Assembly (NCBI GenBank): GCA_001889965.1
Contig: MOEI01000006.1
Coordinates: forward strand, 17,494 to 81,493
From: a bacterium CG10_46_32
GTDB lineage: Bacteria; Patescibacteriota; Patescibacteriia; UBA2169
DNA length: 64,000 nt
Direction: 5' to 3'
Both the position numbers and the translations under genes were made by a program. Under the pieces are notes generated by a model. It had not been told where the DNA came from. It searched no databases and saw only the letters and a list, made by a program, of their open reading frames with translations. Positions 20,363 to 57,304 of the stretch are shown here, piece by piece. Position 1 is the stretch's first letter; each line of letters begins with the position of its first letter.

Positions 20363-20371
20363 ATAGAAGAC

Positions 20372-29013: not shown

Positions 29014-29017
29014 CCAT

Positions 29018-29887: not shown

Positions 29888-31140
29888 GATATTGTACTCG
29901 ATGTTTATATCCAGAAAATCATCCGCTCAATATTACATTTGACGAGCATGGCGTGTGCAGTGGCTGCCACGTGCACGAAGAAAAAGATAAGCTCAACTGG
30001 AAGCAGCGGTCAAAAAAACTGGGTGATATTTTGTACAGTTATACTACAAAATCAGGCAAAAGCTACGATTGCATTATTCCAGTTTCAGGTGCGCGCGATT
30101 CTTATTTTATTGTTCATACCATTAAGAATGTATATAAAAAAAATCCATTGCTTGTCACCTATAATAAACAATACAACACTGCTCTGGGTATCAGGAATTT
30201 GGCCTATTTAAAAACGCTTTTTGGGTGCGACATGCTCACGCTCACCGTAAACCCTGATGCTGTGAAAAAAATCACCAGGCGCACGCTACAAAAAATGGGC
30301 AGCATGTACTGGCATTGCCTGGCCGGCACTACGGCGTATCCTGTGCAGACTGCAGTTCGGTTTAAAATTCCCCTTATTATATGGGGAGCGCATCAGGGGT
30401 GCGATCAGGTTGGCATGTTTTCGCATATGGATGAGGTGGAAATGACGCACAAGTACCGTAAAGACCATGATCTTATGGGATATGAGGCTGAAGATTTGAT
30501 TGGCGGCGGCGTCACCAAAGAAGATGTGCGGCCGTTTGTGTACCCTTCGGATAAAGAAATCGAAAAGGTCGGAGTGCGCGGCATCTATCTTTCCAACTAT
30601 ATCCGCTGGGATTCTAAAAAACAGCACGAAGACATGATAGCGCAGTACGGTTACGAAACAGCCTACCAAGAGAGAACGTTTGATACATATAATGACGTGG
30701 ATTGCTTTAACTATTCCAGTGTGCATGATTATATTAAATTTTTAAAGCACGGTTATGGAAAAGTTACTGATCATGCATCCAGGGAAATCCGTCTCAAGCG
30801 TCTTACGCGCGAGCAGGGGATTGATTTGGTCAAAAAGTATCAGAACCTGAAGCCAAGTAAAAAATCGTTATCCTTGTTTCTGAAATGGGTTGGTATGAAT
30901 AAAAAAGATTTTTATAAATCCATTGACGCATTTCGTTCTTCTGTGGTCTGGGAAAAGTCGGGAATGGCCTGGAAACTCAAGGATTCTATAGTGTGCCATG
31001 CTGGCGACGAAGGTGTTGATTCTGTCCGTCTGAGAAAGAAAGGTCGTTGTGAATTTAAATTGACCAAGCCCAAGAAAACATTAAAAGATGATACATATAC
31101 CCTGCTCGGCCGCGGCTGGGCAGATGATTGGAAACAGTAA
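29884..31140 (+). CDS. Second N-acetyl sugar amidotransferase (WbpG/PseA-like), paralog of 27275-28393
   Basis: CTRC...CSGC zinc ribbon and the PP-loop IIPVSGARDS. Same domain order as the upstream paralog. Confidence 0.65.
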   Translation: MRYCTRCLYPENHPLNITFDEHGVCSGCHVHEEKDKLNWKQRSKKLGDILYSYTTKSGKSYDCIIPVSGARDSYFIVHTIKNVYKKNPLLVTYNKQYNTALGIRNLAYLKTLFGCDMLTLTVNPDAVKKITRRTLQKMGSMYWHCLAGTTAYPVQTAVRFKIPLIIWGAHQGCDQVGMFSHMDEVEMTHKYRKDHDLMGYEAEDLIGGGVTKEDVRPFVYPSDKEIEKVGVRGIYLSNYIRWDSKKQHEDMIAQYGYETAYQERTFDTYNDVDCFNYSSVHDYIKFLKHGYGKVTDHASREIRLKRLTREQGIDLVKKYQNLKPSKKSLSLFLKWVGMNKKDFYKSIDAFRSSVVWEKSGMAWKLKDSIVCHAGDEGVDSVRLRKKGRCEFKLTKPKKTLKDDTYTLLGRGWADDWKQ

Positions 31141-36488: not shown

Positions 36489-37901
36489 ATGTCTAAAGCG
36501 CAAAAAACAATCTTCATCGTCGTGACCCGCGGGTTTATTATCCGAAACATTCTGCGGTCTGGCACTCTTGCATTGCTTAAAAAAGCTGGTTGGCGCGTGG
36601 TGATATTTTTTGATGTCGCAGAAGTTCCTGCGCACTTGCGCCGTGAGTTTGAGGACGAGCAGGTGAGTGTGCACGGGATGCGCGTATCTGTTGCCCGGCC
36701 GCACCGATTATTTTTACGGCTGAGAAAGTATCTTCTCTCAACAAGCTCAACCAAGATTTTGGTGGATTTCCGACAAGGGAGCAAGGATAGACAAAAGTTC
36801 CGCGAAGGATTTTTACCTAAAAAATCTTCGCTTGCAAGCCAGACGCAAAAGCTAAGCATGTCTGTATTGAGCACCATCCCTTTACTTAAGCCTATATACC
36901 GATGGATTGAATATCATATGTTTTCCGAAAAAAATCCCGTGATCCAGCGTTATTTTGACGAATACCAGCCGAACGAAGTGTTTGGCACTTCGGTTGTTTC
37001 TTCTTTGGATATTGCCTTTATGAAAGAGGCTCGCCGCAGAAACATAGTTACCATCGCGATGCCAAAAACCTGGGATAATATTATGAACGGTTATTTCCGT
37101 TTTACCCCGGATTATTTTTTGGTGCATAACGAAATGGCACGTGGCTTAACAGCGCAGTATCAGCATATGCCAAAAGAAAAGATGTTTGTGGTTGGTATGC
37201 CGCAGTTTGACTGGTACCGCAAGGAGGGCGTTCTTAATTCGCGTGCGGAACATTGGAAGAGCAAGGGTCTAGATCCGAATCAAGCGGTCATCTTTTTTGG
37301 TTCAGCGGGTATTTGGGCGGCGCATGACCACGCTATTCCGGAATTAATTTACGGATGGATAGAGCACGGTGAGCTCGCAAAACCGTGCCAGTTATTTTTG
37401 CGTCCGCATTTTAGTAATGTACATGATGACATGTTTAAAAATCTTCGAGGCAAAAAAGGGATTGCTATTGATGATTATAAGATGGTGAATACGTTTAGTG
37501 ATAATTGGGATCCTACAGTTCAGGATACGATTGATTTTACTAATTCCGTTGTATATTGTGATATTATGATAAATATCGGTTCAACGCTTTCTCTGGACGC
37601 ATCCTGCGTTGATCGGCCCATATTAAATCCCGCATTCGGGTGCTCGTTTCAAGGGGGGGAAGATGTGACCTATCCGTACCAGTATGGGGCGGACCACTAT
37701 CAGTGGGTGCTTTCTGAGAACGCAACTAAGCTCTCTTTTAACCCAAAAGAGCTTAAGCAGCAACTGAATGAATATCTTGTGCATCCGGAAGAAGAACAAG
37801 AAGAACGAAAAAATCTTATTAACAAGCTTTGTTATCGCGTAGACGGGCTTGCATCACAGAGGATTGTTGATGCCATTAACAGCAGTGTACGTACTGCGTA
37901 A
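36489..37901 (+). CDS. GT-B-fold transferase with HP-like motif (TagF/CDP-glycerol glycerophosphotransferase-like or sialyl/CMP-sugar transferase-like); paralog of 47997-49400
   Basis: CQLFLRPHFSNVHDD and VGMPQFDWY are shared with the paralog. Length is 470 aa. Confidence 0.4.
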   Translation: MSKAQKTIFIVVTRGFIIRNILRSGTLALLKKAGWRVVIFFDVAEVPAHLRREFEDEQVSVHGMRVSVARPHRLFLRLRKYLLSTSSTKILVDFRQGSKDRQKFREGFLPKKSSLASQTQKLSMSVLSTIPLLKPIYRWIEYHMFSEKNPVIQRYFDEYQPNEVFGTSVVSSLDIAFMKEARRRNIVTIAMPKTWDNIMNGYFRFTPDYFLVHNEMARGLTAQYQHMPKEKMFVVGMPQFDWYRKEGVLNSRAEHWKSKGLDPNQAVIFFGSAGIWAAHDHAIPELIYGWIEHGELAKPCQLFLRPHFSNVHDDMFKNLRGKKGIAIDDYKMVNTFSDNWDPTVQDTIDFTNSVVYCDIMINIGSTLSLDASCVDRPILNPAFGCSFQGGEDVTYPYQYGADHYQWVLSENATKLSFNPKELKQQLNEYLVHPEEEQEERKNLINKLCYRVDGLASQRIVDAINSSVRTA

Positions 37902-38589
37902 TCATATATATAAGAAGAAAAATATTATAGCTATTATTCCGGCGCGGGGTGGATCCAAAACTATCCCCAATAAAAACCTGGCCCCACTCGGCGGCAAGCC
38001 ATTGATGAGTTACAGTATTGCGCAAGCGCAGCAGTCTCGTTATGTGGATATGATTGTTGTGTCGAGTGACAGCGAAGCTATTCTTGCGGAGGCAAAACAG
38101 CTCGGCGCAGAGGCTATTCGCAGGCCTAAGCAGATGAGTGGCGACACTTCCAAAATGGATCTTGCATTAAGGCATGCGTTGCTGCAGCTCGATTCCATTA
38201 AAGGCTATGTGCCGGATTATATTGTGCTTCTGCAACCCACGAGCCCGTTGCGGAGTGTGGCTACTATTGATCGCGCTATTGTCGCTTTTGTGGATAATGC
38301 AAAAAAATTCGATTCGCTTATTGGTTTGTGCGCAATAGAGTCCAAGATCGGGCACATTAAAAATGGCCGCTATATAGCACTCAATAAGATGAATATGCAG
38401 CGTCAGCAACTTAAGCATATGTACCAGGAGTGCGGCACTATTTTTGTGTTTAAGCCGAGTCGAATTTTAAAGAAGCAATCACTCTATGGCGCGCGCGTAA
38501 TGCCATTTATTGTTGAAAAGAGGCACGAAGCTTTAGATATTAATGACAGCCATGATATGAATATGGCGAATTATTTTTTAACCATATGA
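37849..38589 (+). CDS. Second acylneuraminate cytidylyltransferase (NeuA/LegF-like)
   Basis: IIAIIPARGGSKTIPNKN motif. The exact start is uncertain because the ORF's N-terminus overlaps the upstream gene by about 50 nt, and a later or non-ATG start is possible. Confidence 0.75.
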   Translation: MHHRGLLMPLTAVYVLRNHIYKKKNIIAIIPARGGSKTIPNKNLAPLGGKPLMSYSIAQAQQSRYVDMIVVSSDSEAILAEAKQLGAEAIRRPKQMSGDTSKMDLALRHALLQLDSIKGYVPDYIVLLQPTSPLRSVATIDRAIVAFVDNAKKFDSLIGLCAIESKIGHIKNGRYIALNKMNMQRQQLKHMYQECGTIFVFKPSRILKKQSLYGARVMPFIVEKRHEALDINDSHDMNMANYFLTI

Positions 38590-39620
38590 ATGAAATCAAT
38601 ATAGGTAGTAGAAAAATAGGGCCGCGCCATGCGCCGTTCGTTATTGCGGAGATCGGCATTAACCATGAGGGAAGCATGGCAAAAGCAAAGCGCATGATTC
38701 GCGATGCCGCAAAGGCGGGGGCGGAGTGCGTTAAATTCCAAGCGCACGTGATAAGTGATGAAATGGTTCCTGTCGCAAAAAAAGTCATCCCAGGAAATGC
38801 CAAGGAGTCCATTTGGGACATTATGTCGCGGTGCGCGTTTTCCGAAAAGCAAGATCATGAGCTTAAGGCATACACCGAAAAATTAGGCATGCTGTATCTT
38901 TCTACGCCGTTTTCGCGCGCAGGCGCAGATCAACTCCATAAGATGCAAGTGAAAGCCTATAAAATTGGTTCCGGTGAATGCAACAACTATCCGCTTATCG
39001 AACATATTGCACGGTTTAAAAAACCAGTCATCCTTTCCACAGGTATGAATGATATTGCAAGCGTAAAAAAGAGCGTGGCAATTTTACGCACACACAGTGT
39101 TCCGTTTGCACTTTTACATTGCACAAGTATGTACCCAACGCCGTACGACAAAGTGCGTCTTGGTGCGCTTGCGGATTTAGCGAAAGCGTTTCCAGATGCG
39201 GTTGTTGGACTTTCGGATCATTCGTTTGGTAACTATACGTCATTTGGCGCCATTCCTCTTGGCGCATCAATTTTAGAAAAACATTTTACGTCGTATAAAG
39301 AGTGGCCTGGCCCGGATGTGTCTATTTCTATTGATCCGGCAGAGCTTAAAGAATTAATACAGGGCTCTCGAGCTATTCATGCGGCTTTGGGCGGCAAAAA
39401 AGATATTCTAAAAGAGGAGCAGCCTACTATTAATTTTGCCTATGCATGCGTGGTAACAACCAAGCCCATTGCCAAAGGTGAAAAGTTTACTCAGGACAAC
39501 CTCTGGGTAAAGCGTCCGGGTACCGGGGAAATTAAGGCAATTGAGTATAAAAAAATTATTGGGAAAAAAGCAAAACGAGGTATTAAAGCCGATATGCAAC
39601 TTAAACGGAAGGATATATAG
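38586..39620 (+). CDS. Second N-acetylneuraminate synthase family protein (NeuB/LegI-like)
   Basis: PFVIAEIGINHEGS...AGAECVKFQAH...LSDHS and a C-terminal SAF domain. Confidence 0.85.
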   Translation: MNEINIGSRKIGPRHAPFVIAEIGINHEGSMAKAKRMIRDAAKAGAECVKFQAHVISDEMVPVAKKVIPGNAKESIWDIMSRCAFSEKQDHELKAYTEKLGMLYLSTPFSRAGADQLHKMQVKAYKIGSGECNNYPLIEHIARFKKPVILSTGMNDIASVKKSVAILRTHSVPFALLHCTSMYPTPYDKVRLGALADLAKAFPDAVVGLSDHSFGNYTSFGAIPLGASILEKHFTSYKEWPGPDVSISIDPAELKELIQGSRAIHAALGGKKDILKEEQPTINFAYACVVTTKPIAKGEKFTQDNLWVKRPGTGEIKAIEYKKIIGKKAKRGIKADMQLKRKDI

Positions 39621-39624
39621 TACT

Positions 39625-40782
39625 ATGTCAAATAAAAAGCGAACCGTTTTATTTATTAGCGAACGAAGGGCAGACTATAGTCGCTTAAAGCCCATTATGA
39701 AAGCCGTTCAAAAGAGCACAAAGCTTAATTTGAAGCTTGTGGTAACTGGCACGCACCTACTTAAGAATTTTGGAGAAACCAAGCGCGTTGTCGAGAAAGA
39801 TGGATTCTGGATAGATGCGAAAGTTCCTATGTTTAAACCTCGCGGAGCAGACGATGGGGCTGCTATGGTAGAGGCAATGGCGCGAGTACTTGGCGGCCTG
39901 CCAAAGGTGTACAAAAAACTCAAGCCAGACATTGTGTTCTGCGGATTTGATTTAGGTGCGCACCTTGCGGCTGCGATTACGGCAATGCACATGAATATCC
40001 ACGTGGCGCACATACAGGGCGGCGAACGTTCCGGCACTATAGATGAAGTGTTGCGTCATGCGTGCACTAAATTCTCACATATTCATTTTGTCGCAACCGA
40101 GAAAAGCCGAAAGCGTGTTATCAAGCTCGGAGAAGATTCGAAGTATGTATACAATGTAGGGAGCCCAAGTTTGGATACTATCAAATCTATATCTTATCCC
40201 AGTAAAAAAATTATATTTAAAAAATATCATCTTGATCCAGAAAAAAAACTTATTATTTTTCTGCAGCATCCAGTAACCACGGAAGTGGATGAGGTGGTTG
40301 TTCAGATACACCAGACCATAGACGCTGTGCATACTGTTAACCGAAAGTATGGAACTCAAGCGCTGGCCATTTACTCAAATAACGATGCCGGAGGCAAGCG
40401 CATTGTTGCATATCTCAAGAAATCGGGAATTGCAGTCCTGCCGCACGTGGTGTATGAAGATTTTTTGCGACTTTTAAAACATGCGAGCGTGCTGGTTGGA
40501 AATTCCTCAACAGGCATCCACGAGGCTCCTTCGTTTGGATTGCCAACTGTGAATGTTGGTACTCGGCAGCAATTTAGAGAACGCGGGAAAAATGTTATCG
40601 ATACGCCTAATAATAAAGGAAAAATCTTACAGGCAATTGAAAAATCATTATTTGACAAAAAGTATATAAAAATGGTAGAATCTGGTTCTAATCCGTACGA
40701 TAATGGAGATACCGCAAAACAAGTGGTTCACATTCTTGAAAGCGAAACACTGCCCTCAATTCAGAAAGTTATTACCTATTAA
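39625..40782 (+). CDS. UDP-N-acetylglucosamine 2-epimerase, hydrolysing type (NeuC/LegG-like)
   Basis: VLFISERRADYSRLKPI, HIQGGERSGTIDE and VGNSSTGIHEAP motifs. ATG at 39625. Confidence 0.8.
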   Translation: MSNKKRTVLFISERRADYSRLKPIMKAVQKSTKLNLKLVVTGTHLLKNFGETKRVVEKDGFWIDAKVPMFKPRGADDGAAMVEAMARVLGGLPKVYKKLKPDIVFCGFDLGAHLAAAITAMHMNIHVAHIQGGERSGTIDEVLRHACTKFSHIHFVATEKSRKRVIKLGEDSKYVYNVGSPSLDTIKSISYPSKKIIFKKYHLDPEKKLIIFLQHPVTTEVDEVVVQIHQTIDAVHTVNRKYGTQALAIYSNNDAGGKRIVAYLKKSGIAVLPHVVYEDFLRLLKHASVLVGNSSTGIHEAPSFGLPTVNVGTRQQFRERGKNVIDTPNNKGKILQAIEKSLFDKKYIKMVESGSNPYDNGDTAKQVVHILESETLPSIQKVITY

Positions 40783-40793
40783 TTACTACGCAT

Positions 40794-41792
40794 ATGCACG
40801 AGCAATTTAAAGACAAAGTTATTCTTATTACTGGAGGGACAGGAACTATTGGATCTGAATTAGTTCAGCAGCTTTTAAAATGCCACCCAAAACAGGTGCG
40901 TATTTTGTCTCGTGAAGAGGGAAAGCAGTATGAGCTTTTGGAGCGGCTTAAGTACCCTAAAAATTTACGGCTTTTAATTGGTGATATCCGAGATCGTGAC
41001 CGCATTGATTATGCGTTTAAAGACGTGGATATCGTGCTGCATACCGCAGCCATGAAGCAGGTTCCGCTCTGCGAATACAATCCGGCTGAGGCGGTAAAAA
41101 CAAATATTGTTGGCAGCCAAAATGTGATTGACGCAAGCCTCAAGAATCAAGTGGAAAAGGTTATTGCGATTTCCACAGACAAGGCAGTATATCCAACGAA
41201 CGTTATGGGAACTTCCAAGCTCATGATGGAAAAAATGTTTATTAACGCCAATTGGACATCTGGTAAAGCGGTAACCAAATTTGCATGTGTACGTTTCGGA
41301 AATGTGGCATGGGCGCGCGGTAGCGTGCTTCCGCTTTGGAAGAAGCAGGCTGAAAATGAAAGTCGCATTAATATTACTAATCCAAACATGACGCGTTTTA
41401 TGATGTCTATTGAGCAGGCAGTTAATCTTGTGCTGAAAGCCGTAGAGCTTGTGCAGGTTGGAGAAATTTTTGTTCTTAAAATGTCGTCCATCACAATTGG
41501 AGAGCTAGGAAATATGTTTACTGCAAAGTATTATCCGGATAAAAAAATTGCCATTTCAGTAAGCGGCGACCGCGTAGGGGATAAAATGCACGAAGAGTTG
41601 GTAGATGACAACGATCGGACAAGCTATATTCTTGAAGATAAAGATATGTATATTTTTGTTCCTCGTTTTTTAGAGCTTTACGGGGTTGAGCAAGATGTGC
41701 CACAGTATGCCGGATTTACAAAGATTGATACGATTGGGCGGTATTCATCCGATGAGCATATTAATTCAGAAAAAATTAAATCTATTGTGTAA
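40794..41792 (+). CDS. Second UDP-sugar 4,6-dehydratase (PseB/LegB-type short enzyme)
   Basis: ILITGGTGTIGSEL, MGTSK and about 332 aa. Paralog of 25170-26165. Confidence 0.7.
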   Translation: MHEQFKDKVILITGGTGTIGSELVQQLLKCHPKQVRILSREEGKQYELLERLKYPKNLRLLIGDIRDRDRIDYAFKDVDIVLHTAAMKQVPLCEYNPAEAVKTNIVGSQNVIDASLKNQVEKVIAISTDKAVYPTNVMGTSKLMMEKMFINANWTSGKAVTKFACVRFGNVAWARGSVLPLWKKQAENESRINITNPNMTRFMMSIEQAVNLVLKAVELVQVGEIFVLKMSSITIGELGNMFTAKYYPDKKIAISVSGDRVGDKMHEELVDDNDRTSYILEDKDMYIFVPRFLELYGVEQDVPQYAGFTKIDTIGRYSSDEHINSEKIKSIV

Positions 41793-41801
41793 GAGTTTTA
41801 T

Positions 41802-42842
41802 ATGGCAACACACAATGATCTGGCGCGCGCGTATCTCACGCTCGGGTACCATTATATTAGACAGCCGGCTCAAAAAGATCCGTTTCCGCGGGTTAAGGGA
41901 AGCACGTGGAGTGATTTTGGAGCGCATCTGCGGATGATACAAAAATATTTTAATATCATCAGTCTAGATGATGTGTTGCGTTTTCATAGAAATGAGATTG
42001 AATTGTCGCTGACTAAGCCAAATATACTGCTAACTTTTGATGATGGTCTGGAGGAACATTGTAGGGTTGCTCAGATATTGGCTGAGTGTAAAATTCAAGC
42101 GGTGTTTTTTATTCCAACGTGTCTTTTGACAGATAGAGTTCCTATAAATACAACCATTCTGCATTATTCACTAGCTCGGTATGGATTAACTATTTTTTTG
42201 GATGCGTTTCATAAAGCTTTAATAGCGCACGGACTTAAGAACGAAGACTATCCGCTGTATTTTGCTAAAGGAATAGATAATCCTCCCGACAAAATTGTAG
42301 AGATAAAAAAAACCTTTAAGTATGGATTAAGCTACGAGAATTCGCAGGGTATTATTATGCATATTTATCAAGCTTTATTGCTCAAAGACTATCCGAATGC
42401 ATTTGAACTCATGCATATTGACGAAGACAAAGCGAAGAAGATTGTGGATTTTGGTCACAATATAGGAGCGCATACCCATTCACATATATCAGTAGGATCT
42501 ACTGATTTATCAGATGACGCTTTTCAGAAAGAAATTATTCATTCCAAAAATATTTTAGAAAGCAAGCTTGGCGTAAAAGTTGAAAGTATCTCTTATCCTT
42601 TTGGAGAAAAACGAGATTATGACTCTATTGAAGAAAAAATAAGAAAAATGGGGACCTATCAAGCAGGTTTTACGGCCGAGCCGTCTCTTAACACAAAAGA
42701 AACATCACCATTAAAGATTGGGCGATATCTACCTCTTAAAGCTGATACTTCTGATATTTTATTTGATAAATTAAAATCATTACAGATGGGTAAGGAGATA
42801 CTATGGAAATATTGGGAGTTGGCACGGACATCGAAATCATAA
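41802..42842 (+). CDS. Polysaccharide deacetylase (NodB homology domain)
   Basis: ILLTFDDGLEEH motif. Confidence 0.65.
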   Translation: MATHNDLARAYLTLGYHYIRQPAQKDPFPRVKGSTWSDFGAHLRMIQKYFNIISLDDVLRFHRNEIELSLTKPNILLTFDDGLEEHCRVAQILAECKIQAVFFIPTCLLTDRVPINTTILHYSLARYGLTIFLDAFHKALIAHGLKNEDYPLYFAKGIDNPPDKIVEIKKTFKYGLSYENSQGIIMHIYQALLLKDYPNAFELMHIDEDKAKKIVDFGHNIGAHTHSHISVGSTDLSDDAFQKEIIHSKNILESKLGVKVESISYPFGEKRDYDSIEEKIRKMGTYQAGFTAEPSLNTKETSPLKIGRYLPLKADTSDILFDKLKSLQMGKEILWKYWELARTSKS

Positions 42843-43150
42843 ATTCGTTTAGGGCTAAGCCGTATGATGGGCACAAGGTATTGTACAATAAGATTTTTAG
42901 CAAAGCTGAAATTAGTTACTGCTTAAACAAAAATGATAGCTACGCTAGTTTTGCGGGAAAGTTTTGCGCCAAAGAAGCCGTGATAAAAGCGTTTAAGCAT
43001 ACTAATCTTTTTGATATTATATCTGTTGAAATTATAAATAATGCAAACGGCGAACCCGAAGCGTTTACAAACGGAAATAAATTACATTGTTTTTTGTCGA
43101 TTTCACATACCAACGATCAAGCGCTCGCGTTCTGCGTGGCGTATGCGTAA
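42803..43150 (+). CDS. acpS: Holo-[acyl-carrier-protein] synthase (4'-phosphopantetheinyl transferase, AcpS type)
   Basis: GVGTDIEII...FAGKFCAKEAVIKA motifs. Length is 115 aa. Confidence 0.7.
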   Translation: MEILGVGTDIEIINSFRAKPYDGHKVLYNKIFSKAEISYCLNKNDSYASFAGKFCAKEAVIKAFKHTNLFDIISVEIINNANGEPEAFTNGNKLHCFLSISHTNDQALAFCVAYA

Positions 43151-43151
43151 T

Positions 43152-44687
43152 ATGGCTCATCTTGTACAACAATATATTGATCGTAATGCACGACAGAATC
43201 CAAAAAAGACGGCTGTAGTGTTTAACGATGAAAGTATAACGTATAAGGATTTGGAGGAATATACAAACCAGCTTGGCCGCGTGCTTAAAAAAGCTGGTGT
43301 AGGCAAAGGGGATCGAGTTTGTTTTTGCCTATATAAATCAATCAATTCCATTAAAGCCATTTTTGGTATTCTAAAAGCGGATGCAAGCTATGTGCCTTTG
43401 GATGCGTTTTCTCCGGCCGCGCGTTTAAAAAAAATTACACAAGACGCCGAACCCAAGGTGCTGGTCTGCGATACAGATACTATGGCACTGGTTAAATCCA
43501 TTATTCCTGTATCTGTCACTGTAGTGTGCTTAGGGAAGAAACGGGTAGATGACAGTATTCTTGCAGAAAAAAAAATCAGCCCTTCTTGTACAAATACTCC
43601 GGAAGACGTAGCATATATTTTTTACACCTCCGGCTCGACCGGAACCCCCAAAGGTGTTATGATAACTCATCGTAATCTTAATGGATGCGCAGATTGGGCT
43701 GTGCGTGAGTTCGGCATTACCAAAAAGGACACGCTCTCTTCCCACCCACCGTTTCATTTTGACCTATCAACGTTTGATATATATGCATGCTTTAAGGCAG
43801 GCGCAACATTGGTTATTGTTCCTGAAAAATTTTCTGTATTTCCGGGCGCGCTTTTAGACTATATTGAGCACCATAGTATGACCATTTGGAATTCCGTGCC
43901 GTCACTCCTCTCGTATGTGGCGCGTTCCGGAGTTTTAACCAAAGATCGTATCCCGCTCGTTAAAAAGATTTTTTTTAACGGTGAAGTGTTTTCACCAAAA
44001 TATCTTGCCCAATGGATGACAATGTATCCTAAAAAAGAATTCGTAAACATGTATGGGCCAACAGAAGCAACAGTGCAGTGCAGTTTTTATCGAATTAAAA
44101 GAGTGCCGAAAAATTTGAAAAAGCCAGTACCTATTGGAAAATCTTGCAGCAACGCTAAAATTTTTGCGGTTACAGTGGATGGCAAAATCGCACGGCCGGG
44201 TCAGCGCGGCGAATTATACATTGGCGGTAGCGGGGTTGGTCGTGGATATTGGAGGAATAGGGAAAAAACCAAAGAATCCTTTGTGCAAAATCCTTTTGCC
44301 GCACCCAAAGGAATCGTGTATAAAACCGGAGACTTTGTATTATACAATAAAAATAAGGAGTACGAGTTTTTAGGAAGGATCGACCACCAGGTGAAGCATA
44401 TGGGCTACCGCATTGAATTAGGAGAGGTGGAGTCCGCGCTTTTGTCTATCTCATACATAAAAGAAGCAATCGTGGTTGCATACGAGAAAGAAACTGGAAA
44501 TGAACTGGCCGCATTTGTAGTTACATCCGGTAAGCGTTCTGCGGCGAGCATAATAGCAGACCTCCGCACGATTGTCCCTGCGTACATGGTTCCGGGCAAG
44601 GTGCTCATGCTTCCGTCATTACCAAAAACCAGCACTGGAAAAACAGACCGTGTGACATTAAAGGAACAGTATGTCGCAAAAGTATAA
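43152..44687 (+). CDS. Adenylate-forming enzyme (AMP-dependent ligase; DltA / amino-acid-or-acyl carrier protein ligase-like)
   Basis: YTSGSTGTPKGV A3 motif, YGPTEAT, and the YKTGD...GRxDxQVKxxGxRIELGE A8-A10 region. ATG at 43152, right after the acpS stop. Confidence 0.8.
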   Translation: MAHLVQQYIDRNARQNPKKTAVVFNDESITYKDLEEYTNQLGRVLKKAGVGKGDRVCFCLYKSINSIKAIFGILKADASYVPLDAFSPAARLKKITQDAEPKVLVCDTDTMALVKSIIPVSVTVVCLGKKRVDDSILAEKKISPSCTNTPEDVAYIFYTSGSTGTPKGVMITHRNLNGCADWAVREFGITKKDTLSSHPPFHFDLSTFDIYACFKAGATLVIVPEKFSVFPGALLDYIEHHSMTIWNSVPSLLSYVARSGVLTKDRIPLVKKIFFNGEVFSPKYLAQWMTMYPKKEFVNMYGPTEATVQCSFYRIKRVPKNLKKPVPIGKSCSNAKIFAVTVDGKIARPGQRGELYIGGSGVGRGYWRNREKTKESFVQNPFAAPKGIVYKTGDFVLYNKNKEYEFLGRIDHQVKHMGYRIELGEVESALLSISYIKEAIVVAYEKETGNELAAFVVTSGKRSAASIIADLRTIVPAYMVPGKVLMLPSLPKTSTGKTDRVTLKEQYVAKV

Positions 44688-44928
44688 CATTCAAAAAATC
44701 GAATCAAGCCTAAAATCTTTTTTGGAAAAAGAAACCAAGAGTGTTATCGCGAGCCGCGACACTGATTTGGTCAAGAAAGGCATTATCAGCTCCTTGGATA
44801 TGTTTTTACTGATTGAATTTATAGAAAAAAAATTCAAAGTGAGTGTGGACATCACCACGCTTAATCCAGAAAATTTTAATTCACTCCGGTCTATCGCCGC
44901 GCACATCGCACTATGGACATCGATATAA
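44671..44928 (+). CDS. Acyl/peptidyl carrier protein (DltC-like)
   Basis: 85 aa with the GIISSLDMFLLIEFIE phosphopantetheine attachment site. Confidence 0.65.
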   Translation: MSQKYNIQKIESSLKSFLEKETKSVIASRDTDLVKKGIISSLDMFLLIEFIEKKFKVSVDITTLNPENFNSLRSIAAHIALWTSI

Positions 44929-45983
44929 GATACGTCAAAAAAAATGAAGTAAAAAAGCTTGTCGCTTTTAACAAGGCGCAGTATCGTCCAGGCCACATCC
45001 TTACGAATAAGCGATATCTGGACTGGCAGTTCGGCAGCCTGAACGCCCTGCGTTCCGAGTATACAGTCCTTGGGGTTTTTGACGCAAAAGAAAATCTGCT
45101 GGGAACATTTGGATTCACTTTTTTGGATTTTTTGTGTTTTGGGAAAAAGGTTACTGCCACCAGTTGTGCTAATTTGATGGTGAATAGCTCGCTTCGTAAT
45201 ATGGGATTGGGATATGCGCTCTTGCGCAAAGCACAGGAACTGCACCGCATTACGCTGGATCATGGGCTGAATGCAGATGCGCTGCGTCTTTTTTTGGGGA
45301 TGGGTTGGTCTGGTGGAGATTTAAATCGGCATGCGTTTATCGTCAATAGCGCGGGGATTAAAAAAATAATCAAGAAGCAGGGTGCGCTAATCCAAGACTC
45401 AACAGCAGTTCCGGTTAATCCGAATGGGTTGGAGCTGGTTGCCCTTAAAAAGTATGATGTGCGACTTGAGGCCTTATTTAAAAAAACAAAATCAAAATAT
45501 CCCATTACCGTGGCGCGGAGCAAGAAATATCTTAATTGGCGTTATTTTAAACACCCACTTATTACGTACTCTGTTTTTGTCGCTACAAAAAACGGGAAGT
45601 TCGAATCGTTTGTAGTTGTTCGCATGGAGGGATCAAAACAGTTAAAAGCTGGCAGGATTGTTGATTTTATTTCCACAGATAGCGCGGAGGCGTTTTCTTT
45701 TGCGGGTGTTGTAGATTTTTGTCGGATACAGGGCGCACATTTTATTGATTATTATTTTTCTGGGAATTTTCATGTGCGCGGATTAGCGCGTGCAAGGTTT
45801 GTTGATTGTTCATCCGGATCGTTTGTTTTATTGCCAAAGTTTTTAAATCCTGTAGTTGTGACAGAATATAATGCCATTAATATGGTAGTTTGCACAACGA
45901 TGCGTACTATTAGTAAAAAAATTAGGAATATTAATAATTGGTACACTACCAAAGGAGGTGGTGACCAGGATCGTGCGTACTAG
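44913..45983 (+). CDS. GNAT-fold (FemAB/Acetyltransf_6-like) acyltransferase, hypothetical
   Basis: NMGLGYALL GNAT motif A-like. About 356 aa could hold two GNAT-like halves. Its position after the ligase and carrier protein supports the call. Confidence 0.35.
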   Translation: MDIDIRYVKKNEVKKLVAFNKAQYRPGHILTNKRYLDWQFGSLNALRSEYTVLGVFDAKENLLGTFGFTFLDFLCFGKKVTATSCANLMVNSSLRNMGLGYALLRKAQELHRITLDHGLNADALRLFLGMGWSGGDLNRHAFIVNSAGIKKIIKKQGALIQDSTAVPVNPNGLELVALKKYDVRLEALFKKTKSKYPITVARSKKYLNWRYFKHPLITYSVFVATKNGKFESFVVVRMEGSKQLKAGRIVDFISTDSAEAFSFAGVVDFCRIQGAHFIDYYFSGNFHVRGLARARFVDCSSGSFVLLPKFLNPVVVTEYNAINMVVCTTMRTISKKIRNINNWYTTKGGGDQDRAY

Positions 45984-45989
45984 ATAACT

Positions 45990-46835
45990 ATGAATACGAA
46001 TAAAAATTATTTAGAATGGAAAAAACAGTCCGATCCAGATAAGGGCTTTGCGGTACGAGGTACGCTCGTAGAACATGCGGCAAAAAAAGGTTTTAACGCC
46101 ATCATCGATGAGTATGTTTATATTTATCCCGAAAATATAGAACGAACATTTCGGTTGTTGCCTTTGGCGTGGGAATCTTTTAAAGGTGTAGGAGTTGATT
46201 TGGGTGGCGGTGTTGGGTGCGTCGCAGCTACTATAGCCAGAAAACCTGAAGTGGAGAAAATATACTGTGTCGAGTTTACAAAAGAAGTTGTTGAACTGTG
46301 TCAGTCGATTGTAAAACAGGTTGTTTTGCCAGGCAAGGAGGACAAGGTGGTTTCTGTTCTTGGTGATTTTGACAACCTAGAGCTTGCGGATGGCTCTATT
46401 GATTTTGCGATTGATTGGGATTCTCTACATCATTCTTATGATGTAATAAAAACATTGCGCGAGTGTCATCGTGTTTTAAAACCGAGCGGCCGGCTTATTA
46501 TGGTTGATCGAGTACACAACAATAATACGCCGGAGTCTGAACTCGAACGCCGTCGTACTATTGTGTACGATAAAGAATTTTTGCGGAGAAATTATTTGGA
46601 CGAAAATATAGTACTCACTCGAAAGGATTTAGGCGAACATGAATGGCGATTTCGTGAGTGGGAAAGTTTTTTTTCCGCAGCGGGTTTTAAGGTGCTAGAT
46701 ACCATAATTATTAAAACAGATACTGAGGATAATCGGGCAATAAAGAATGACAAAAATTTAGTCGAAATTTTAACAAACTATAATTTAGGCGGTTTTGGAA
46801 GCCGTAAAGTTGGCTATATTCTTGAGGCCCTATAA
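45990..46835 (+). CDS. Class I SAM-dependent methyltransferase
   Basis: VGVDLGGGVGCVA motif I and VLKPSGRLIM. Confidence 0.65.
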   Translation: MNTNKNYLEWKKQSDPDKGFAVRGTLVEHAAKKGFNAIIDEYVYIYPENIERTFRLLPLAWESFKGVGVDLGGGVGCVAATIARKPEVEKIYCVEFTKEVVELCQSIVKQVVLPGKEDKVVSVLGDFDNLELADGSIDFAIDWDSLHHSYDVIKTLRECHRVLKPSGRLIMVDRVHNNNTPESELERRRTIVYDKEFLRRNYLDENIVLTRKDLGEHEWRFREWESFFSAAGFKVLDTIIIKTDTEDNRAIKNDKNLVEILTNYNLGGFGSRKVGYILEAL

Positions 46836-46848
46836 TACGACATTGATT

Positions 46849-47997
46849 ATGCAAAAAAAGAAGATTATTTTTTTAACGGGCACACGAGCCGATTTTGGAA
46901 AAATAAAGCCGTTGATTGATGTGACGATGCGTGCAAATATATTTGAAGTGCATATTTTTGCAACAGGCATGCACTTGAGCAAAAAATACGGATACACAAT
47001 GAACGAAATAAAAAAGTGCGGCTTTGAGAATATCTATCCGTTTGATAATGACGTTGAAAGCGGAAGCCTGAGCAGCGTCCTTGCAAACACGATTAATGGT
47101 TTTGGCGATTATGTACAAGCGTTGCAGCCAAATTTGATTATTGTTCATGGGGATCGAGTTGAAGCGCTCGCCGGCGCATTAGTCGGCTCCCTGAATAATA
47201 TTATTGTTGCACACGTGGAAGGCGGAGAGGTTTCCGGAACCATTGATGAACATATACGGCATGCAATAAGCAAAATGTCACATATTCATTTTGTGGCAAA
47301 TGCGGAAGCCCAGAAACGCCTCGTGCAGATGGGGGAATCAGATGAGGTGATTCATGTTATCGGTTCACCGGATCTAGACATAATGACTTCTTCGGATTTG
47401 CCCAGTATGGAGGAAGCCAAGCAGAAATACAGCATACCTTTTGGTCGCTATGCTATTTTACTCTACCATCCTGTAACTTCGGAGTTGGATAAACTTCAGG
47501 TGCATGCTGATGACTTGGTTTCTGAAGTGTTTGATTCAGGGCTCAATTATATCGTTGTATATCCGAATAGCGATCCGGGTTCGGATTGCATTCTTAAAAG
47601 CTATCAGGAACACTTAGAGGTGAATGATCGTTTTCGAGTTATCCCTTCGGTTCGGTTTGAGCATTTTTTGACGCTCATCAAGCATGCTAAATTTATTATT
47701 GGAAACTCAAGCGTTGGCATTCGGGAGGCGCCTTTTTACGGAGTTCCCAGTATTAATATCGGTACGCGTCAGCATCGACGGCTTAAGCCTGGCACTGCCA
47801 AGAGTATTGTGGATGTGCCAGATGATCGGAGTGAAATAGCGCGCGCTATCCGCGATGCAGCTAAGATCGAAAAACGGTATGAAAAGAATCAGTACTTTGG
47901 AGACGGTAACAGTGCCAAGCGTTTTTATAGCATTATCACTCGGGATGATTTTTGGAACACCAACGCCCAGAAATTTTTTGTTGATTTATACGAGTAA
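46849..47997 (+). CDS. Third UDP-GlcNAc 2-epimerase homologue (NeuC-like, hydrolysing type)
   Basis: IIFLTGTRADFGKIKPL, HVEGGEVSGTIDE and IGNSSVGIREAP motifs. ATG at 46849. Confidence 0.75.
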   Translation: MQKKKIIFLTGTRADFGKIKPLIDVTMRANIFEVHIFATGMHLSKKYGYTMNEIKKCGFENIYPFDNDVESGSLSSVLANTINGFGDYVQALQPNLIIVHGDRVEALAGALVGSLNNIIVAHVEGGEVSGTIDEHIRHAISKMSHIHFVANAEAQKRLVQMGESDEVIHVIGSPDLDIMTSSDLPSMEEAKQKYSIPFGRYAILLYHPVTSELDKLQVHADDLVSEVFDSGLNYIVVYPNSDPGSDCILKSYQEHLEVNDRFRVIPSVRFEHFLTLIKHAKFIIGNSSVGIREAPFYGVPSINIGTRQHRRLKPGTAKSIVDVPDDRSEIARAIRDAAKIEKRYEKNQYFGDGNSAKRFYSIITRDDFWNTNAQKFFVDLYE

Positions 47998-49400
47998 TGA
48001 GAGGCATGACTATTTTTATTACCATTGCCAAAGGATTAATTGCTCGCAACCTCCTGCAGAATGATTTTTATGCACTCGTAAAAAAACATTTCGACAAAGT
48101 GGTTGTATTGAGCACTGCGTGGAGCGATGAACGATTTGTTACTGAGTTTGGCGGCAGTAATGTGGTATTTTTGCCACTACCTCAGGCGCCGGATACGTTT
48201 GCGAGTAAGCTTATTGGCAACCTAAGCCGGTATATTATCTATAACGGCAGGACCGAAATGATGAGTGCGTATAATTTTGATCGCGGCAAGGATGTGCCTG
48301 TTATATGGTGGTACCCAAAATACCTCATTCTTAAGGCGGTGTTTGTACCGCTTTCAAAAATTACTTCTTTGCGAAAATTATTGCGCAAGATTGATGTTGC
48401 ATTTTTACATAAAAAGACCGTGGCAAAGTACCGCGCGCTTATTAAAGAGCATGCTCCAAATGTGGTATTTGTTTCTAATATAGTGGATAATACCGAAGCT
48501 GCTTTGGTAAAAGCAGCACGCCGAGAAAGGGTTCCCAGCGTTGCTATGGTTAAGAGCTGGGATAATTTTTCCAAGCAATATTTTGGCGCATCCGCAGATA
48601 CGTTTGCCGTGTGGAATCAGTTTATGGCGGAACAGGCGCATGCGCTGCAGGATTATAAAAAGGAAGCTATTGCTATTGTGGGCGTTCCTCAGTTTGATTA
48701 CTATGCAGACCATTTCTGTATTGTGCCACGAGAGGTGTTTTGTAAGCGCGCGGGTTTGGATCCGAATAAAAAGATTATTTTTTTCGGGTCAGAGGGCAAG
48801 CTTATGCCTACAGATCCAAATATCGTAGAGGTGATGCGTGATTTTATAAAAAATAACGAACTTGCCGAGGAGTGCCAGGTGTTTGTGCGGCCGCATTTTG
48901 CCTACACACATGACCGCGAAAAATTTAAAGATTTTTTTAGTTCAAAAGAAGTGGTGGTAGATGCATCTCATAAATCCTCTTCGGGTTTTTCGGATGGCTG
49001 GGATTATTCTAGAGAACAAATGGAGTACTTCCTCAATGCCATTCATCATGCTGCTGTGGTTGTCAATACTGCGTCTACGCTTACGGCAGATGCCTTAGCG
49101 CTCAATCGACCTGTTATTTTAATTGCGTTTGAGGGATACGAGAAAAAAACAACTTACGAATCTGTTGCCGGGTGGTATACAAGCGATTATTACCAAAAAA
49201 TTGTTTCGTTTCATGCCGCGCTCATGGCAGATAGCGTTGCGCGCTTGCGTTCTGCGATTAATGAGTGTCTTGCCGATCCCGACATACTCTCCCCGGCGCG
49301 CAAAAAGTTTAAAGATTATTTTTGTTTTAAGGTGGATGGCGGCGCAGGCAAACGTTTATTTAGTGTAGTATATCAAGAAACAAATAGTATTAAAAATTAA
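47997..49400 (+). CDS. GT-B-fold HP-motif transferase, paralog of 36489-37901
   Basis: CQVFVRPHFAYTHDRE and VGVPQFDYY. Length is 467 aa. Confidence 0.4.
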   Translation: MRGMTIFITIAKGLIARNLLQNDFYALVKKHFDKVVVLSTAWSDERFVTEFGGSNVVFLPLPQAPDTFASKLIGNLSRYIIYNGRTEMMSAYNFDRGKDVPVIWWYPKYLILKAVFVPLSKITSLRKLLRKIDVAFLHKKTVAKYRALIKEHAPNVVFVSNIVDNTEAALVKAARRERVPSVAMVKSWDNFSKQYFGASADTFAVWNQFMAEQAHALQDYKKEAIAIVGVPQFDYYADHFCIVPREVFCKRAGLDPNKKIIFFGSEGKLMPTDPNIVEVMRDFIKNNELAEECQVFVRPHFAYTHDREKFKDFFSSKEVVVDASHKSSSGFSDGWDYSREQMEYFLNAIHHAAVVVNTASTLTADALALNRPVILIAFEGYEKKTTYESVAGWYTSDYYQKIVSFHAALMADSVARLRSAINECLADPDILSPARKKFKDYFCFKVDGGAGKRLFSVVYQETNSIKN

Positions 49401-53283: not shown

Positions 53284-54510
53284 ATGGAAAAAGCTAGAGA
53301 AAAAAGACCGATATTTATTGTCGGATGCACTCGCAGCGGCACCAAGCTCGTATCCCGCATTGTGGGCGGGCATCTTGATAATTTTTTAATTACCGAGCAC
53401 CGCGAAAAATTCCACATTCCCGAGGACCGTTCCGGCGTGTGCGAAGAGCACTTGTGGTTTAATAATTTTGAATTTAAGCATTGGGGAAAAAACGGGGATC
53501 CTTTAGTACGGACACCTATCTACAATAAAGCAGATATTGCCCGCATGAAAGAGATATTATTGTCTCTTTCTGGAGCCAAGCGGTTGGTGGTTAAAAATCC
53601 GCAGGATATTTTACGAATCCGTTTTATTAAAAAAATGTTCCCAGATGCCTTGTTTGTTTTTTGCGTGCGGAACCCATGGCATGGTTTGCAGTCTCGAATT
53701 ATTGGTGGCGAGGCAAAGTATTTAATCCCATCGGAGAAGAATTTTGAATTGCCGGATGATCTGTTGCTTAAGTCCGTGTATTCATGGAAAGAGAGTATTG
53801 ATATTTACCAGAACGAGCATGATGAAAACTGGTGCGCAATCCGGTATGAGGATGTTGTGTTTAGCACCAAGGATACACTTGCTAAGTTGTTTGAGTTTTT
53901 AGGAATGGATTCGCATTCTGAATACTTCAATAGGGCGTGCTCCTTGCCGCGGGATTTAGAACATCAGTATTATCCGGTTAAAAAAGCATTTAAGAAGAGT
54001 GCATTTAAAAAAGAAATAATGGATATTGTTCATGACGGATGTGCCGTATTTCCGTATGAGACATCTATTGATTTGGTTCCCGGAAGCGCGTGGCACTACT
54101 ATTTATTAGAGAAGGATATCATTAACATCAAGTGGCTTAAAGCGCGTTTTATTGGAATCACTAAGTGCATGTCTAAAAGCATTTTGCGGATTGTTTTTTA
54201 CGTAGTGGGTGGTGTCCGTAAAACCATAGTGAGCCACATTATGTTTGCCGCTCTTTCCGAAGGGGCAAGCGCGTTTGTTTCCACGGAGGATGCCAAAATC
54301 GCGGATGTTGCTGGGCATAGTAAAAAAGATGAAACAGCATCATTTATTGTTTCGCAAATGCAGTATCAGCGCCTTAGGCATTTTAATCGTGTGATTGTTT
54401 TAGATAGCACAGGATCTTCGTGGCTATTGCTTAAGAATATTGACTTTTTTCCGGAAAAACAGTATAATTATATACTTAATGGAAAGGTAGAATACATAAA
54501 ACATGCTTGA
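53284..54510 (+). CDS. Sulfotransferase-domain protein (PAPS-dependent) with a C-terminal extension
   Basis: 5'-PSB-like PIFIVGCTRSGTKLV and 3'-PB-like FVFCVRNPWHGLQS. Confidence 0.5.
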   Translation: MEKAREKRPIFIVGCTRSGTKLVSRIVGGHLDNFLITEHREKFHIPEDRSGVCEEHLWFNNFEFKHWGKNGDPLVRTPIYNKADIARMKEILLSLSGAKRLVVKNPQDILRIRFIKKMFPDALFVFCVRNPWHGLQSRIIGGEAKYLIPSEKNFELPDDLLLKSVYSWKESIDIYQNEHDENWCAIRYEDVVFSTKDTLAKLFEFLGMDSHSEYFNRACSLPRDLEHQYYPVKKAFKKSAFKKEIMDIVHDGCAVFPYETSIDLVPGSAWHYYLLEKDIINIKWLKARFIGITKCMSKSILRIVFYVVGGVRKTIVSHIMFAALSEGASAFVSTEDAKIADVAGHSKKDETASFIVSQMQYQRLRHFNRVIVLDSTGSSWLLLKNIDFFPEKQYNYILNGKVEYIKHA

Positions 54511-57295: not shown

Positions 57296-57304
57296 AATAA
57301 AAAT

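Follow-up and report, generated by a model that had tools for sequence, protein, structure and literature searches.

A predicted carrier-protein-dependent aminoacylation cassette within a nonulosonate locus of bacterium CG10_46_32

Six closely packed genes and the acyl-loading proteins

A 64,000-nucleotide stretch of DNA from the patescibacterial bacterium CG10_46_32 (contig MOEI01000006.1 of assembly GCA_001889965.1, positions 17,494 to 81,493 of the forward strand; hereafter, the window) carries six consecutive plus-strand genes at 41802-46835, whose ends overlap or nearly touch. A preliminary description of this DNA had singled out four of them, at 42803-45983, as an acylation cassette made up of an AcpS protein, an adenylating ligase, a carrier protein and a GNAT-like transferase, inside a nonulosonate locus. 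All four open reading frames (ORFs) are present on the plus strand at these coordinates. Judging from sequence analysis, we consider it rather likely that they specify a minimal thiotemplate, which would place an aminoacyl group on a nitrogen of a nonulosonic acid intermediate of either the pseudaminic acid (Pse) or the legionaminic acid (Leg) type. The six genes are:

41802-42842, plus strand: CE4 (NodB-type) de-N-acetylase (PF01522)
42803-43150, plus strand: AcpS-type 4'-phosphopantetheinyl transferase (PPTase), 115 aa (PF01648)
43152-44687, plus strand: stand-alone adenylation (A) enzyme of the nonribosomal peptide synthetase (NRPS) type, 511 aa (TIGR01733)
44671-44928, plus strand: type II peptidyl carrier protein (PCP), 85 aa (orthologue profile, PF00550)
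44913-45983, plus strand: tandem-GNAT transferase, 356 aa (PF00583, AlphaFold model)
45990-46835, plus strand: class I S-adenosylmethionine (SAM) methyltransferase (PF08241, 59.2 bits)

The overlaps between cassette genes measure 16-40 nt, which suggests translational coupling, and since the cassette genes also overlap the flanking sugar genes, a single operon is indicated. The entire 64-kb window is a single glycan-biosynthesis island. No second carrier or transferase copy was found in the window, in which 44671-44928 is the sole carrier gene.

The PPTase is of the AcpS type, as had been claimed for it: it matches PF01648 (62.1 bits; cut-off 25) and the TIGR00556 domain (54; cut-off 45.35), and its magnesium-binding motifs, GTDIE (residues 7-11) and KEAVIK (57-62), are intact. 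Its scores stay under the cut-off of every housekeeping AcpS equivalog (e.g. 33 against 59.8 for TIGR00516), and the enzyme is probably dedicated to the carrier protein of the cassette. Taken alone, the carrier sequence ends just under the PF00550 threshold (19.5 bits; 20.8 required); the same model is matched by 12 of 12 syntenic orthologues (best E 9.7e-8), and a profile of these 12 retrieves solved type II PCPs with E-values of 1e-11 to 1e-16 (best E=9e-16). The profile also matches PigG, PltL and aminoacyl carrier proteins, and DltC at ~1e-7, whereas the acyl carrier proteins (ACPs) of fatty-acid synthase (FAS) reach only ~1e-3, and we rejected a FAS ACP. The protein thus groups with type II PCPs, aminoacyl carriers and DltC instead of generic fatty-acid ACPs. 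The SSLD attachment site proposed earlier also holds: phosphopantetheine would be accepted by Ser41 (nt 44791-44793) in GIISSLD, and S41, N68 and F69 are invariant among the orthologues.

For the adenylation gene, mechanical ORF calling sets the start at 43041. The true start is the ATG at 43152, one base past the AcpS stop, and we discarded the longer ORF (43041-44687) since it runs through part of AcpS in another reading frame and the alignments to the domain models begin at 43152. The protein exceeds the cut-off of the amino acid adenylation model TIGR01733 (379.8 against 317.4), matches PF00501 (278.5 bits) and PF13193 (50.7 bits), and has core motifs A3, A5, A7, A8 and A10 all intact. Among solved structures, NRPS A domains, PltF and DltA come closest to it; in the A4-A5 region, the stand-alone proline ligases PltF and PigI are nearest, followed by a V. 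cholerae EntF-related protein and DltA. Long-chain-fatty-acid-CoA ligase models give 165-234 bits against cut-offs of 476-766, far below the NRPS models, and aryl ligase models are likewise much lower than the amino acid adenylation model. With these scores, and with the top solved relatives all being NRPS or aminoacyl-carrier ligases, we rejected a fatty-acyl ligase; the enzyme groups with PltF, PigI, DltA and LgrA.

What might this enzyme activate? We read its specificity code from a MAFFT alignment to GrsA-PheA, the reference sequence having been checked by recovery of the canonical DAWTIAAICK. The code is DLFNFNMVQK, and the Asp and Lys at the positions equivalent to GrsA 235 and 517 indicate an alpha-amino acid substrate. 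The A enzymes of nine independent syntenic loci keep the code DLF[ND][FCL]N[ML]VQK even though they are only 47-54% identical overall, which argues that the substrate is conserved. Its side chain is probably small or polar, given the bulky F239, F299 and M322 together with the amides N278, N301 and Q331. Proline was considered and rejected, since the PltF code obtained from the alignment, DLLYLALVCK, differs at the side-chain positions. A Thr code and a cyanobacterial Ala code come nearest, each agreeing at 5 of 10 positions, which is no convincing match. For 43152-44687, the code points to an alpha-amino acid as a class.

The ligase had been called DltA-like. DltA is indeed among its nearer solved relatives, but the score against the DltA equivalog model TIGR01734 stays under the cut-off (309.1; 559.85), as does that of the carrier against the DltC equivalog NF003464 (22.9; 68). 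Neither MBOAT/DltB nor DltD had a match among the window ORFs scanned with Pfam. We accordingly dismissed a dlt operon, in agreement with the preliminary description, which had held that this is not a standard one.

The tandem-GNAT transferase and its carrier and loader partners

The transferase has the same sequence as OJI07375.1/PIR56359.1 of bacterium CG10_46_32. In databases, the protein and its homologues go by "hypothetical protein" or "GNAT family N-acetyltransferase", and the closest relatives from named lineages belong to the Patescibacteria, namely to Parcubacteria, Saccharibacteria and Harrisonbacteria. PF00583 is barely passed (21.2 against 20.7, over residues 45-112), and there is no NCBIfam match and no specific Pfam model; a profile of the family matches solved GNATs at E=2e-5. 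An AlphaFold model based on a 25-sequence alignment is a confident tandem GNAT (pLDDT 92.5, pTM 0.91). In a Foldseek comparison with the PDB, the top 50 matches were all N-myristoyltransferases (NMTs; E ~1e-14, TM ~0.55, identity 9-14%, typically ~12%). NMT represents the textbook tandem-GNAT fold, and FemX-type enzymes belong to the same structural class. Classification of 44913-45983 thus bears out an acyltransferase fold. The earlier suggestion of a GNAT-like, possibly FemAB-type protein stands as regards the fold class, which is that of FemX and NMT, and falls as regards the family: neither FemAB (PF02388) nor Acetyltransf_6 matched the transferase at E<=0.01, nor did the Pfam NMT models, and we rejected membership in either family.

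Within the N-terminal half lies a pantetheine-pyrophosphate motif, R95-x-x-G98-x-G100, whose residues are at least 90% conserved. In the C-terminal half, R202, Y206, W209, R210, P215, Y219, D251, F296 and D351 are invariant; a YLNWRY motif is conserved in the family, and a near-invariant TKGGGDQDR motif is found at the C-terminus. The transferase has no membrane segment. NMT uses its C-terminal carboxylate as a base, and catalysis of this kind was considered for the highly conserved C-terminus here; we judge it unlikely because family members have anywhere from 1 to 9 residues beyond DQDR.

When 1.84 billion representative proteins were searched with a profile, 647 transferase clusters reached E<=1e-30; with the threshold relaxed to E<=1e-10, the number rose to 6,526. 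Using the C-terminal motif as the query and one genome per species, we additionally scanned for loci and obtained 80, from Saccharibacteria, Parcubacteria, Nanoarchaeota, Verrucomicrobiota, Acidobacteriota, Planctomycetota, Chloroflexota and Pseudomonadota. Cultured genera among these loci are Paenibacillus, Cohnella, Lysinibacillus, Psychrobacillus, Psychrobacter, Bradyrhizobium and Novipirellula, and Brevibacillus also has a homologue. Nine independent loci repeat the arrangement seen here, with the genes for PPTase, A enzyme, carrier and transferase in this order, although their transferases share only 36-43% identity with that of the window; its maintenance at such divergence speaks for selection rather than chance. 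A PPTase gene adjoins the transferase mainly in Patescibacteria and Nanoarchaeota loci. These lineages generally lack fatty-acid synthesis and hence a housekeeping PPTase, a trait that the bias fits.

Domain fusions provide the strongest functional evidence for the transferase family. The carrier is fused to the transferase in P0030, P0031, P0093 and P0110 and in five fused ORFs at loci; an A domain is fused to it in P0109, and a methyltransferase in P0165. In P0098, FkbH (residues 40-582), carrier (631-702) and transferase (718-1067) follow one another, an order that is repeated in an ORF of the planctomycete Aureliella sp. (L021, 1771-5154), and such single polypeptides with FkbH, carrier and tandem GNAT comprise ~1,070-1,130 aa. 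FkbH-type enzymes load a glyceryl unit onto a carrier, so the tri-domain protein reads as load, carry, transfer. Separately encoded partners follow suit: two carrier profiles detect a carrier gene no more than 6 kb from the transferase at ~64 of 84 loci, typically immediately upstream. Neighbourhood counts cover the 48 non-duplicate loci in which each flank extends for at least 5 kb; neighbours were detected by single-sequence phmmer, so that the counts are underestimates. By this measure, a loader is near the transferase in 37 of the 48 loci (24 FkbH, 14 A enzyme).

Could the transferase instead be an ordinary acyl-CoA-dependent GNAT? It would then acetylate a carrier-bound amino acid or an aminoacyl sugar, with the aminoacyl group being moved by some other enzyme or by the A enzyme. 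Its N-terminal half does carry the classical CoA-pyrophosphate motif and matches acetyl-CoA-using GNATs, R-x-x-G-x-G being equally suited to acyl-CoA, and the locus of the A domain-transferase fusion (L086) has no visible carrier gene. Both facts count against the carrier-dependent interpretation as well, and given L086, carrier dependence may not be necessary for every family member. Conversely, nothing else that could offload the carrier, be it a condensation domain, a thioesterase or a further acyltransferase, is encoded in the cassette or its relatives, and the transferase is the only candidate offloading enzyme of the cassette. The glyceryl thioester of the FkbH-carrier-transferase proteins offers no amine for acetylation, carrier and transferase genes are direct neighbours in most loci, and carrier-dependent GNATs share the same fold (PMC11685415). 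Overall, we regard an acyl-CoA-dependent enzyme as quite unlikely and predict a carrier-protein-dependent N-acyltransferase, which would move an aminoacyl group to a sugar amine.

Individual loci vary in composition. The metagenome contig with P0109 (L086, 1-8601) has a methyltransferase, a long-insert CE4 deacetylase (see below) and a DUF4910/DUF2172 protein nearby; C. jejuni Cj1295, a protein required for the dimethylglyceric-acid form of Pse, belongs to the latter family. In two Nanoarchaeota metagenome-assembled genomes (MAGs; L013 and L014), the transferase is accompanied by a PPTase, a carrier and a loader, either an A enzyme with LuxE/LuxC or FkbH. The module is hence common to ultra-small bacteria and ultra-small archaea of the DPANN group. 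A variant in L005 and L013 consists of PPTase, carrier, an A enzyme without Asp235, LuxE and LuxC, followed by the transferase, with an additional short-chain dehydrogenase gene ahead of the transferase in L005. This variant resembles the ACP/LuxE/LuxC/CaiC sets of enterobacterial flagellin glycosylation islands and also the V. cholerae O1 tetronate genes. L007 and L009 combine the A-enzyme cassette with an FkbH-like gene that closely follows the one transferase gene detected in each, and L007 has an additional FkbH-type carrier; two loaders may thus feed one transferase. Finally, in a Saccharibacteria MAG (L012, 800-16443), the cassette follows genes for a transaldolase-like protein, a GmhA-like SIS-domain protein, a HAD phosphatase, a nucleotidyltransferase and a dehydratase, a set that resembles a heptose nucleotide-sugar pathway, and is itself followed by NeuC, a cytidine monophosphate (CMP)-transferase and NeuB. 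In this lineage, the acceptor may be a higher-carbon ulosonic acid.

The probable deacetylase partner and the predicted nonulosonate acceptor

The gene upstream of the PPTase, which it overlaps by 40 nt, encodes a CE4 deacetylase (PF01522, 58.3 bits; cut-off 23.1) with intact catalytic motifs, TFDDG (residues 78-82) and HTHSH (224-228). No named equivalog fits, with PgaB, PdaB and the XrtA deacetylase all far under their cut-offs. The N-terminus is not hydrophobic and lacks a signal peptide, so the enzyme should act on soluble cytoplasmic intermediates. Of 84 loci, 56 have a homologue no further than 6 kb from the transferase, usually as its immediate neighbour; among the 48 well-flanked loci, a CE4 deacetylase is near the transferase in 35 and within 1.8 kb in 29. 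In canonical NodB domains, TFDD and H-x-x-x-H are spaced by ~50 residues. In 52 of the 56 linked deacetylases, the spacing is 144-154, with 146 in the window copy. Together, this suggests that the transferase-linked deacetylases, the window copy included, form one distinctive CE4 subfamily, and that the product of 41802-42842 is a probable partner of the cassette.

On the other side, the methyltransferase gene starts 7 nt past the transferase. Methyltransferases recur beside transferase homologues and one is fused (P0165), and orthology of the adjacent enzyme with these was rejected for lack of BLASTP support. It could conceivably modify the acyl group or the sugar, with a weak link to the cassette.

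Which sugar might be the acceptor? The genes surrounding the six are as follows:

37849-38589, plus strand: CMP-transferase, PseF-like (118 bits)
38586-39620, plus strand: NeuB-like synthase (TIGR03569, 381.7 bits, just under the cut-off of 399.65)
39541-40782, plus strand: NeuC-like hydrolysing 2-epimerase (TIGR03568, 379.3; cut-off 235.9)
40794-41792, plus strand: PseB-like 4,6-dehydratase (PF02719, 328.7 bits)
46795-47997, plus strand: second NeuC-like epimerase (TIGR03568, 398.9; cut-off 235.9)
47997-49400, plus strand: TagF/BFO_1060-like putative nonulosonate transferase (NF046086, 49.8, cut-off 200; PF04464, 23.5 bits)

The island has two nonulosonate synthases, PseI at 34896 and the NeuB-like protein at 38586, and two NeuC-like epimerases (39541 and 46795) besides an unclassified Epimerase_2 homologue (3329-4441). 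It further encodes two CMP-transferases, two PseB-like dehydratases, PseC/DegT-family aminotransferases, many glycosyltransferases, a HisH/HisF/WbuX acetimidoyl set and a sulfation module. The placement of the cassette inside a nonulosonate locus, as claimed in the preliminary description, is borne out by the PseI, NeuB-like, NeuC-like, PseB- and PseC-like and CMP-transferase genes around it. Other family members keep similar company: NeuB, PseI, NeuC or a CMP-transferase is found within 8 kb of the transferase in 30 of the 48 loci, and NeuB, NeuC and CMP-transferase genes lie on either side of it in Psychrobacter (L078), Lysinibacillus (L035) and the Bryobacterales loci.

An acceptor other than a nonulosonate could be a teichoic-acid-like or other glycopolymer, making the cassette a cytoplasmic analogue of Dlt, or another amino sugar of the island, a lipid or a protein N-terminus. 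Several features are compatible with such acceptors: the proximity of the A enzyme to PltF and PigI in A4-A5, with DltA among the next solved relatives, and the resemblance of the carrier to DltC; weak matches of neighbouring glycosyltransferases to TagF-type PF04464; the NMT-like fold of the transferase; and several further amino-sugar pathways encoded in the island. Moreover, the 8 kb around the transferase yielded no nonulosonate core gene at 18 of the 48 well-flanked loci, though single-sequence phmmer undercounts these genes. Yet the transferase is embedded among NeuB, NeuC and CMP-transferase genes across distant phyla, that of the window lies between the PseB-like/NeuC/NeuB set and the second NeuC-like gene, and neither DltB nor DltD was found. 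We consider a different acceptor unlikely.

A further possibility is that the product of the four genes is released as a small molecule, for instance an N-acyl amino acid or something dipeptide-like, and that their position in a glycan island is incidental. Stand-alone trios of A enzyme, carrier and GNAT do occur in secondary metabolism, as in SbzL/G/I and FeeM (PMC11685415). Against this, the transferase family is repeatedly found in glycan loci and tightly paired with the sugar-type CE4 subfamily, and the overlaps with flanking sugar genes indicate one operon. A free product appears very improbable to us.

How, then, would the aminoacyl group reach a nonulosonate? Based on its family and motifs, the PPTase would convert the 85-aa carrier to the holo form at Ser41, and the A enzyme would adenylate an alpha-amino acid and thioesterify it to the carrier. 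The CE4 enzyme, whose role is suggested by its conserved adjacency, would strip an N-acetyl group from a soluble intermediate and so free an amine. The favoured site is the acetamido group inherited from uridine diphosphate-N-acetylglucosamine, i.e., N5 of the sugar; editing there is suggested by the tight pairing with the deacetylase, because N5 can be altered only after deacetylation. Alternatively or additionally, the transferase may stand in for PseH/LegH on the 4-amino intermediate (the nitrogen that becomes N7), which could be its direct substrate in loci where a deacetylase is missing. The N-terminal GNAT half with its R-x-x-G-x-G motif would bind the aminoacyl-S-phosphopantetheine arm and the C-terminal half, with conserved Arg, Tyr, Trp and Asp residues, the sugar; the transferase would then form the amide and release the holo-carrier. 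Acylation could take place at the stage of the nucleotide-hexose, the free hexose, the free sugar acid or the CMP-sugar. Conceivably, the methyltransferase methylates the product, and the NeuC-like, NeuB-like, CMP-transferase and TagF-like proteins would complete, activate and transfer the modified sugar. The route that had been put forward earlier, from activation through loading to transfer onto the nitrogen of an amino sugar or nonulosonate, is therefore upheld at the level of genomic inference.

In addition to the motif and the L086 locus discussed above, several observations weigh against this scheme. The putative acceptor is placed solely through gene neighbourhood. Of the nine independent Patescibacteria loci with the closest cassettes, only three have a deacetylase within 6 kb, and the putative nonulosonate transferases score far under the cut-off of the BFO_1060 family. 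No family members turned up for organisms with known N-glyceroyl or N-aminoacyl nonulosonates, such as T. forsythia, C. jejuni or V. vulnificus, a second homologue search giving only Bacillales and environmental proteins under generic names. Lastly, we know of no published code that matches DLFNFNMVQK. On the other side, gene fusions and conserved neighbourhoods across phyla strongly suggest a link from carrier to transferase to nonulosonate.

Known systems, the wider island and significance

The closest biochemical precedent is SbzL/SbzG/SbzI of altemicidin biosynthesis, in which an adenylating enzyme loads a carrier and a GNAT transfers the acid to the amine of a nucleotide-linked acceptor; few carrier-dependent GNATs exist, SbzI among them (PMC11685415). 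The three-step logic is the same, as is the use of a stand-alone adenylating enzyme, a stand-alone carrier and a GNAT. SbzI differs in belonging to secondary metabolism and acting on an azaindane dinucleotide, whereas the transferase described here is a tandem GNAT with an NMT-like fold and motifs of its own, resides in glycan loci and is predicted to use an alpha-amino acid donor. Profile comparisons revealed no sequence kinship to SbzI beyond the GNAT superfamily. With the class of carrier-dependent GNATs (SbzI, FeeM, GdvG/AprG), it shares the fold and the coupled carrier and loader; its donor is a prediction.

As in Dlt systems, a stand-alone A enzyme and a small dedicated carrier would put an amino acid on a cell-surface glycopolymer. 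Dlt yields an extracellular polymer ester, in contrast to the cytoplasmic amide on a sugar precursor, formed by a soluble GNAT, that we predict here. The known biochemical logic of SbzL/G/I and Dlt would be carried out by a large unnamed enzyme family. NMT and FemX/FemAB likewise consist of two fused GNAT domains, and by analogy the donor would sit in the N-terminal and the acceptor mainly in the C-terminal half. Their donors are acyl-CoA or aminoacyl-tRNA, as opposed to the acyl-carrier predicted for the window transferase; the fusions to carriers and loaders argue for a carrier-bound donor rather than aminoacyl-tRNA. PltF-PltL and PigI-PigG are also stand-alone dedicated pairs, closest in A4-A5 and among the best carrier matches, but they have a proline code and feed into downstream oxidation to a pyrrole, not sugar transfer.

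Carrier proteins are encoded in further glycan loci without an assigned role. Cj1299-Cj1308 of C. jejuni includes ACPs, the FkbH-domain protein Cj1302 and an "amino acid activating enzyme", Cj1307; other carrier sets are the V. cholerae O1 tetronate genes and the exosortase-A (PEP-CTERM) ligase/ACP/FemAB-like/deacetylase group. The PEP-CTERM models do not fit the window proteins (TIGR03098 267.1 against 592.35 for the ligase; TIGR03006 21.6 against 276.2 for the deacetylase), and as the transferase has no NCBIfam match, TIGR03019 is not matched either. The FkbH-domain gene cj1302 lies in the C. jejuni flagellar glycosylation locus (PMC7099621); a 2026 paper labels Cj1296-Cj1310 as not involved in flagellar glycosylation (PMC13317340). 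Genes for ACP, LuxE, LuxC, CaiC and FabG are found in enterobacterial flagellin glycosylation islands (PMC4875605). What these unassigned sets have in common with the family studied here are FkbH and LuxC/LuxE loaders, which also adjoin the transferase; what sets them apart is that they have no demonstrated transferase of this family.

Other parts of the island merit mention. A sulfation module (53284-58391) begins with a sulfotransferase (53284-54510), followed at 54503-57295 by a 930-aa triple fusion of a pyruvate-kinase-like domain, ATP sulfurylase and adenosine 5'-phosphosulfate (APS) kinase; we know of no recognised fusion of a pyruvate-kinase domain to a 3'-phosphoadenosine 5'-phosphosulfate (PAPS) synthase. 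A gene of the CysQ/inositol-monophosphatase family (57549-58391) and an acetyl-CoA synthetase gene (58354-60252) come next. At 17687-21839, in the middle of the glycan locus, an 891-aa protein with CotH kinase and right-handed beta-helix domains precedes a VTC-domain protein (polyphosphate polymerase-type) and a DUF4956 protein. A second, shorter CE4 deacetylase (254 aa, contiguous PF01522) is followed by a methyltransferase and a carbamoyltransferase at 13353-16379, which may constitute another deacetylate-then-redecorate module yielding N-carbamoyl or N-methyl groups. Beside a PseB/DegT set, 28390-31140 encodes a HisH-like, HisF-like and WbuX-type amidotransferase trio. Such trios are the usual signature of acetimidoyl (Am) formation, and the island probably makes an N-acetimidoyl sugar, too.

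What would this mean for nonulosonate biology? On flagella, S-layers, capsules and lipopolysaccharide, Pse and Leg bear acetimidoyl, glyceroyl, hydroxybutyryl, alanyl and methyl-glutamyl N-acyl groups, which affect immune recognition, phage binding and colonisation. To our knowledge, the enzymes that install most of these groups are unknown. Our literature search found no characterised carrier-protein/adenylation system in pseudaminic or legionaminic acid biosynthesis, no characterised member of the transferase family and no thiotemplated N-acylation of nonulosonic acids, while subscription journals may hold earlier work. Work on T. forsythia shows that the CMP-sugar already bears the nonulosonate modifications and describes the responsible enzymes as unknown (PMC5420450, PMC5378307); for a Leg-type cluster, a deacetylase and a formyltransferase were proposed to act at the nucleotide-sugar level (bioRxiv 10.64898/2026.04.20.719630). 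An alanyl-bearing legionaminic acid, Leg5Ac7AcAla, occurs in V. vulnificus (cited in PMC7371886).

The cassette and its family offer a testable mechanism for such modifications, namely deacetylation followed by re-acylation from a carrier-bound thioester. One pair of transferase and deacetylase is served by different loaders, i.e., an A domain, an FkbH-type glyceryl loader or an A enzyme with LuxC/LuxE, in bacteria and some DPANN archaea, and with loaders this interchangeable, the module seems to be an N-acyl editing device of general use for these sugars. The gene signature consists of carrier, tandem GNAT, long-insert CE4 and loader, and the broad acyl class should be readable from the loader type. 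On a broader proposal we lean slightly to the doubtful side: the transferase could be the first representative of a so far unrecognised family of carrier-dependent tandem-GNAT N-acyltransferases that spans many phyla and that, together with dedicated long-insert CE4 enzymes and interchangeable loaders, would form a general nonulosonate N-acyl editing machinery. If true, this would supply the missing enzymology of N-glyceroyl, N-aminoacyl and further unusual N-acyl groups on Pse and Leg, in pathogens as well as environmental bacteria, with ultra-small Patescibacteria and Nanoarchaeota having the machinery too. Homologues in the cultivable Paenibacillus, Lysinibacillus, Brevibacillus, Cohnella, Psychrobacter and Bradyrhizobium make genetics and biochemistry feasible, and a possible use lies in the chemo-enzymatic synthesis of modified sialic-acid analogues. 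For the probable Patescibacteria-type organisms themselves, a PPTase of their own inside a glycan island of at least 64 kb would point to a heavy investment in surface glycans.

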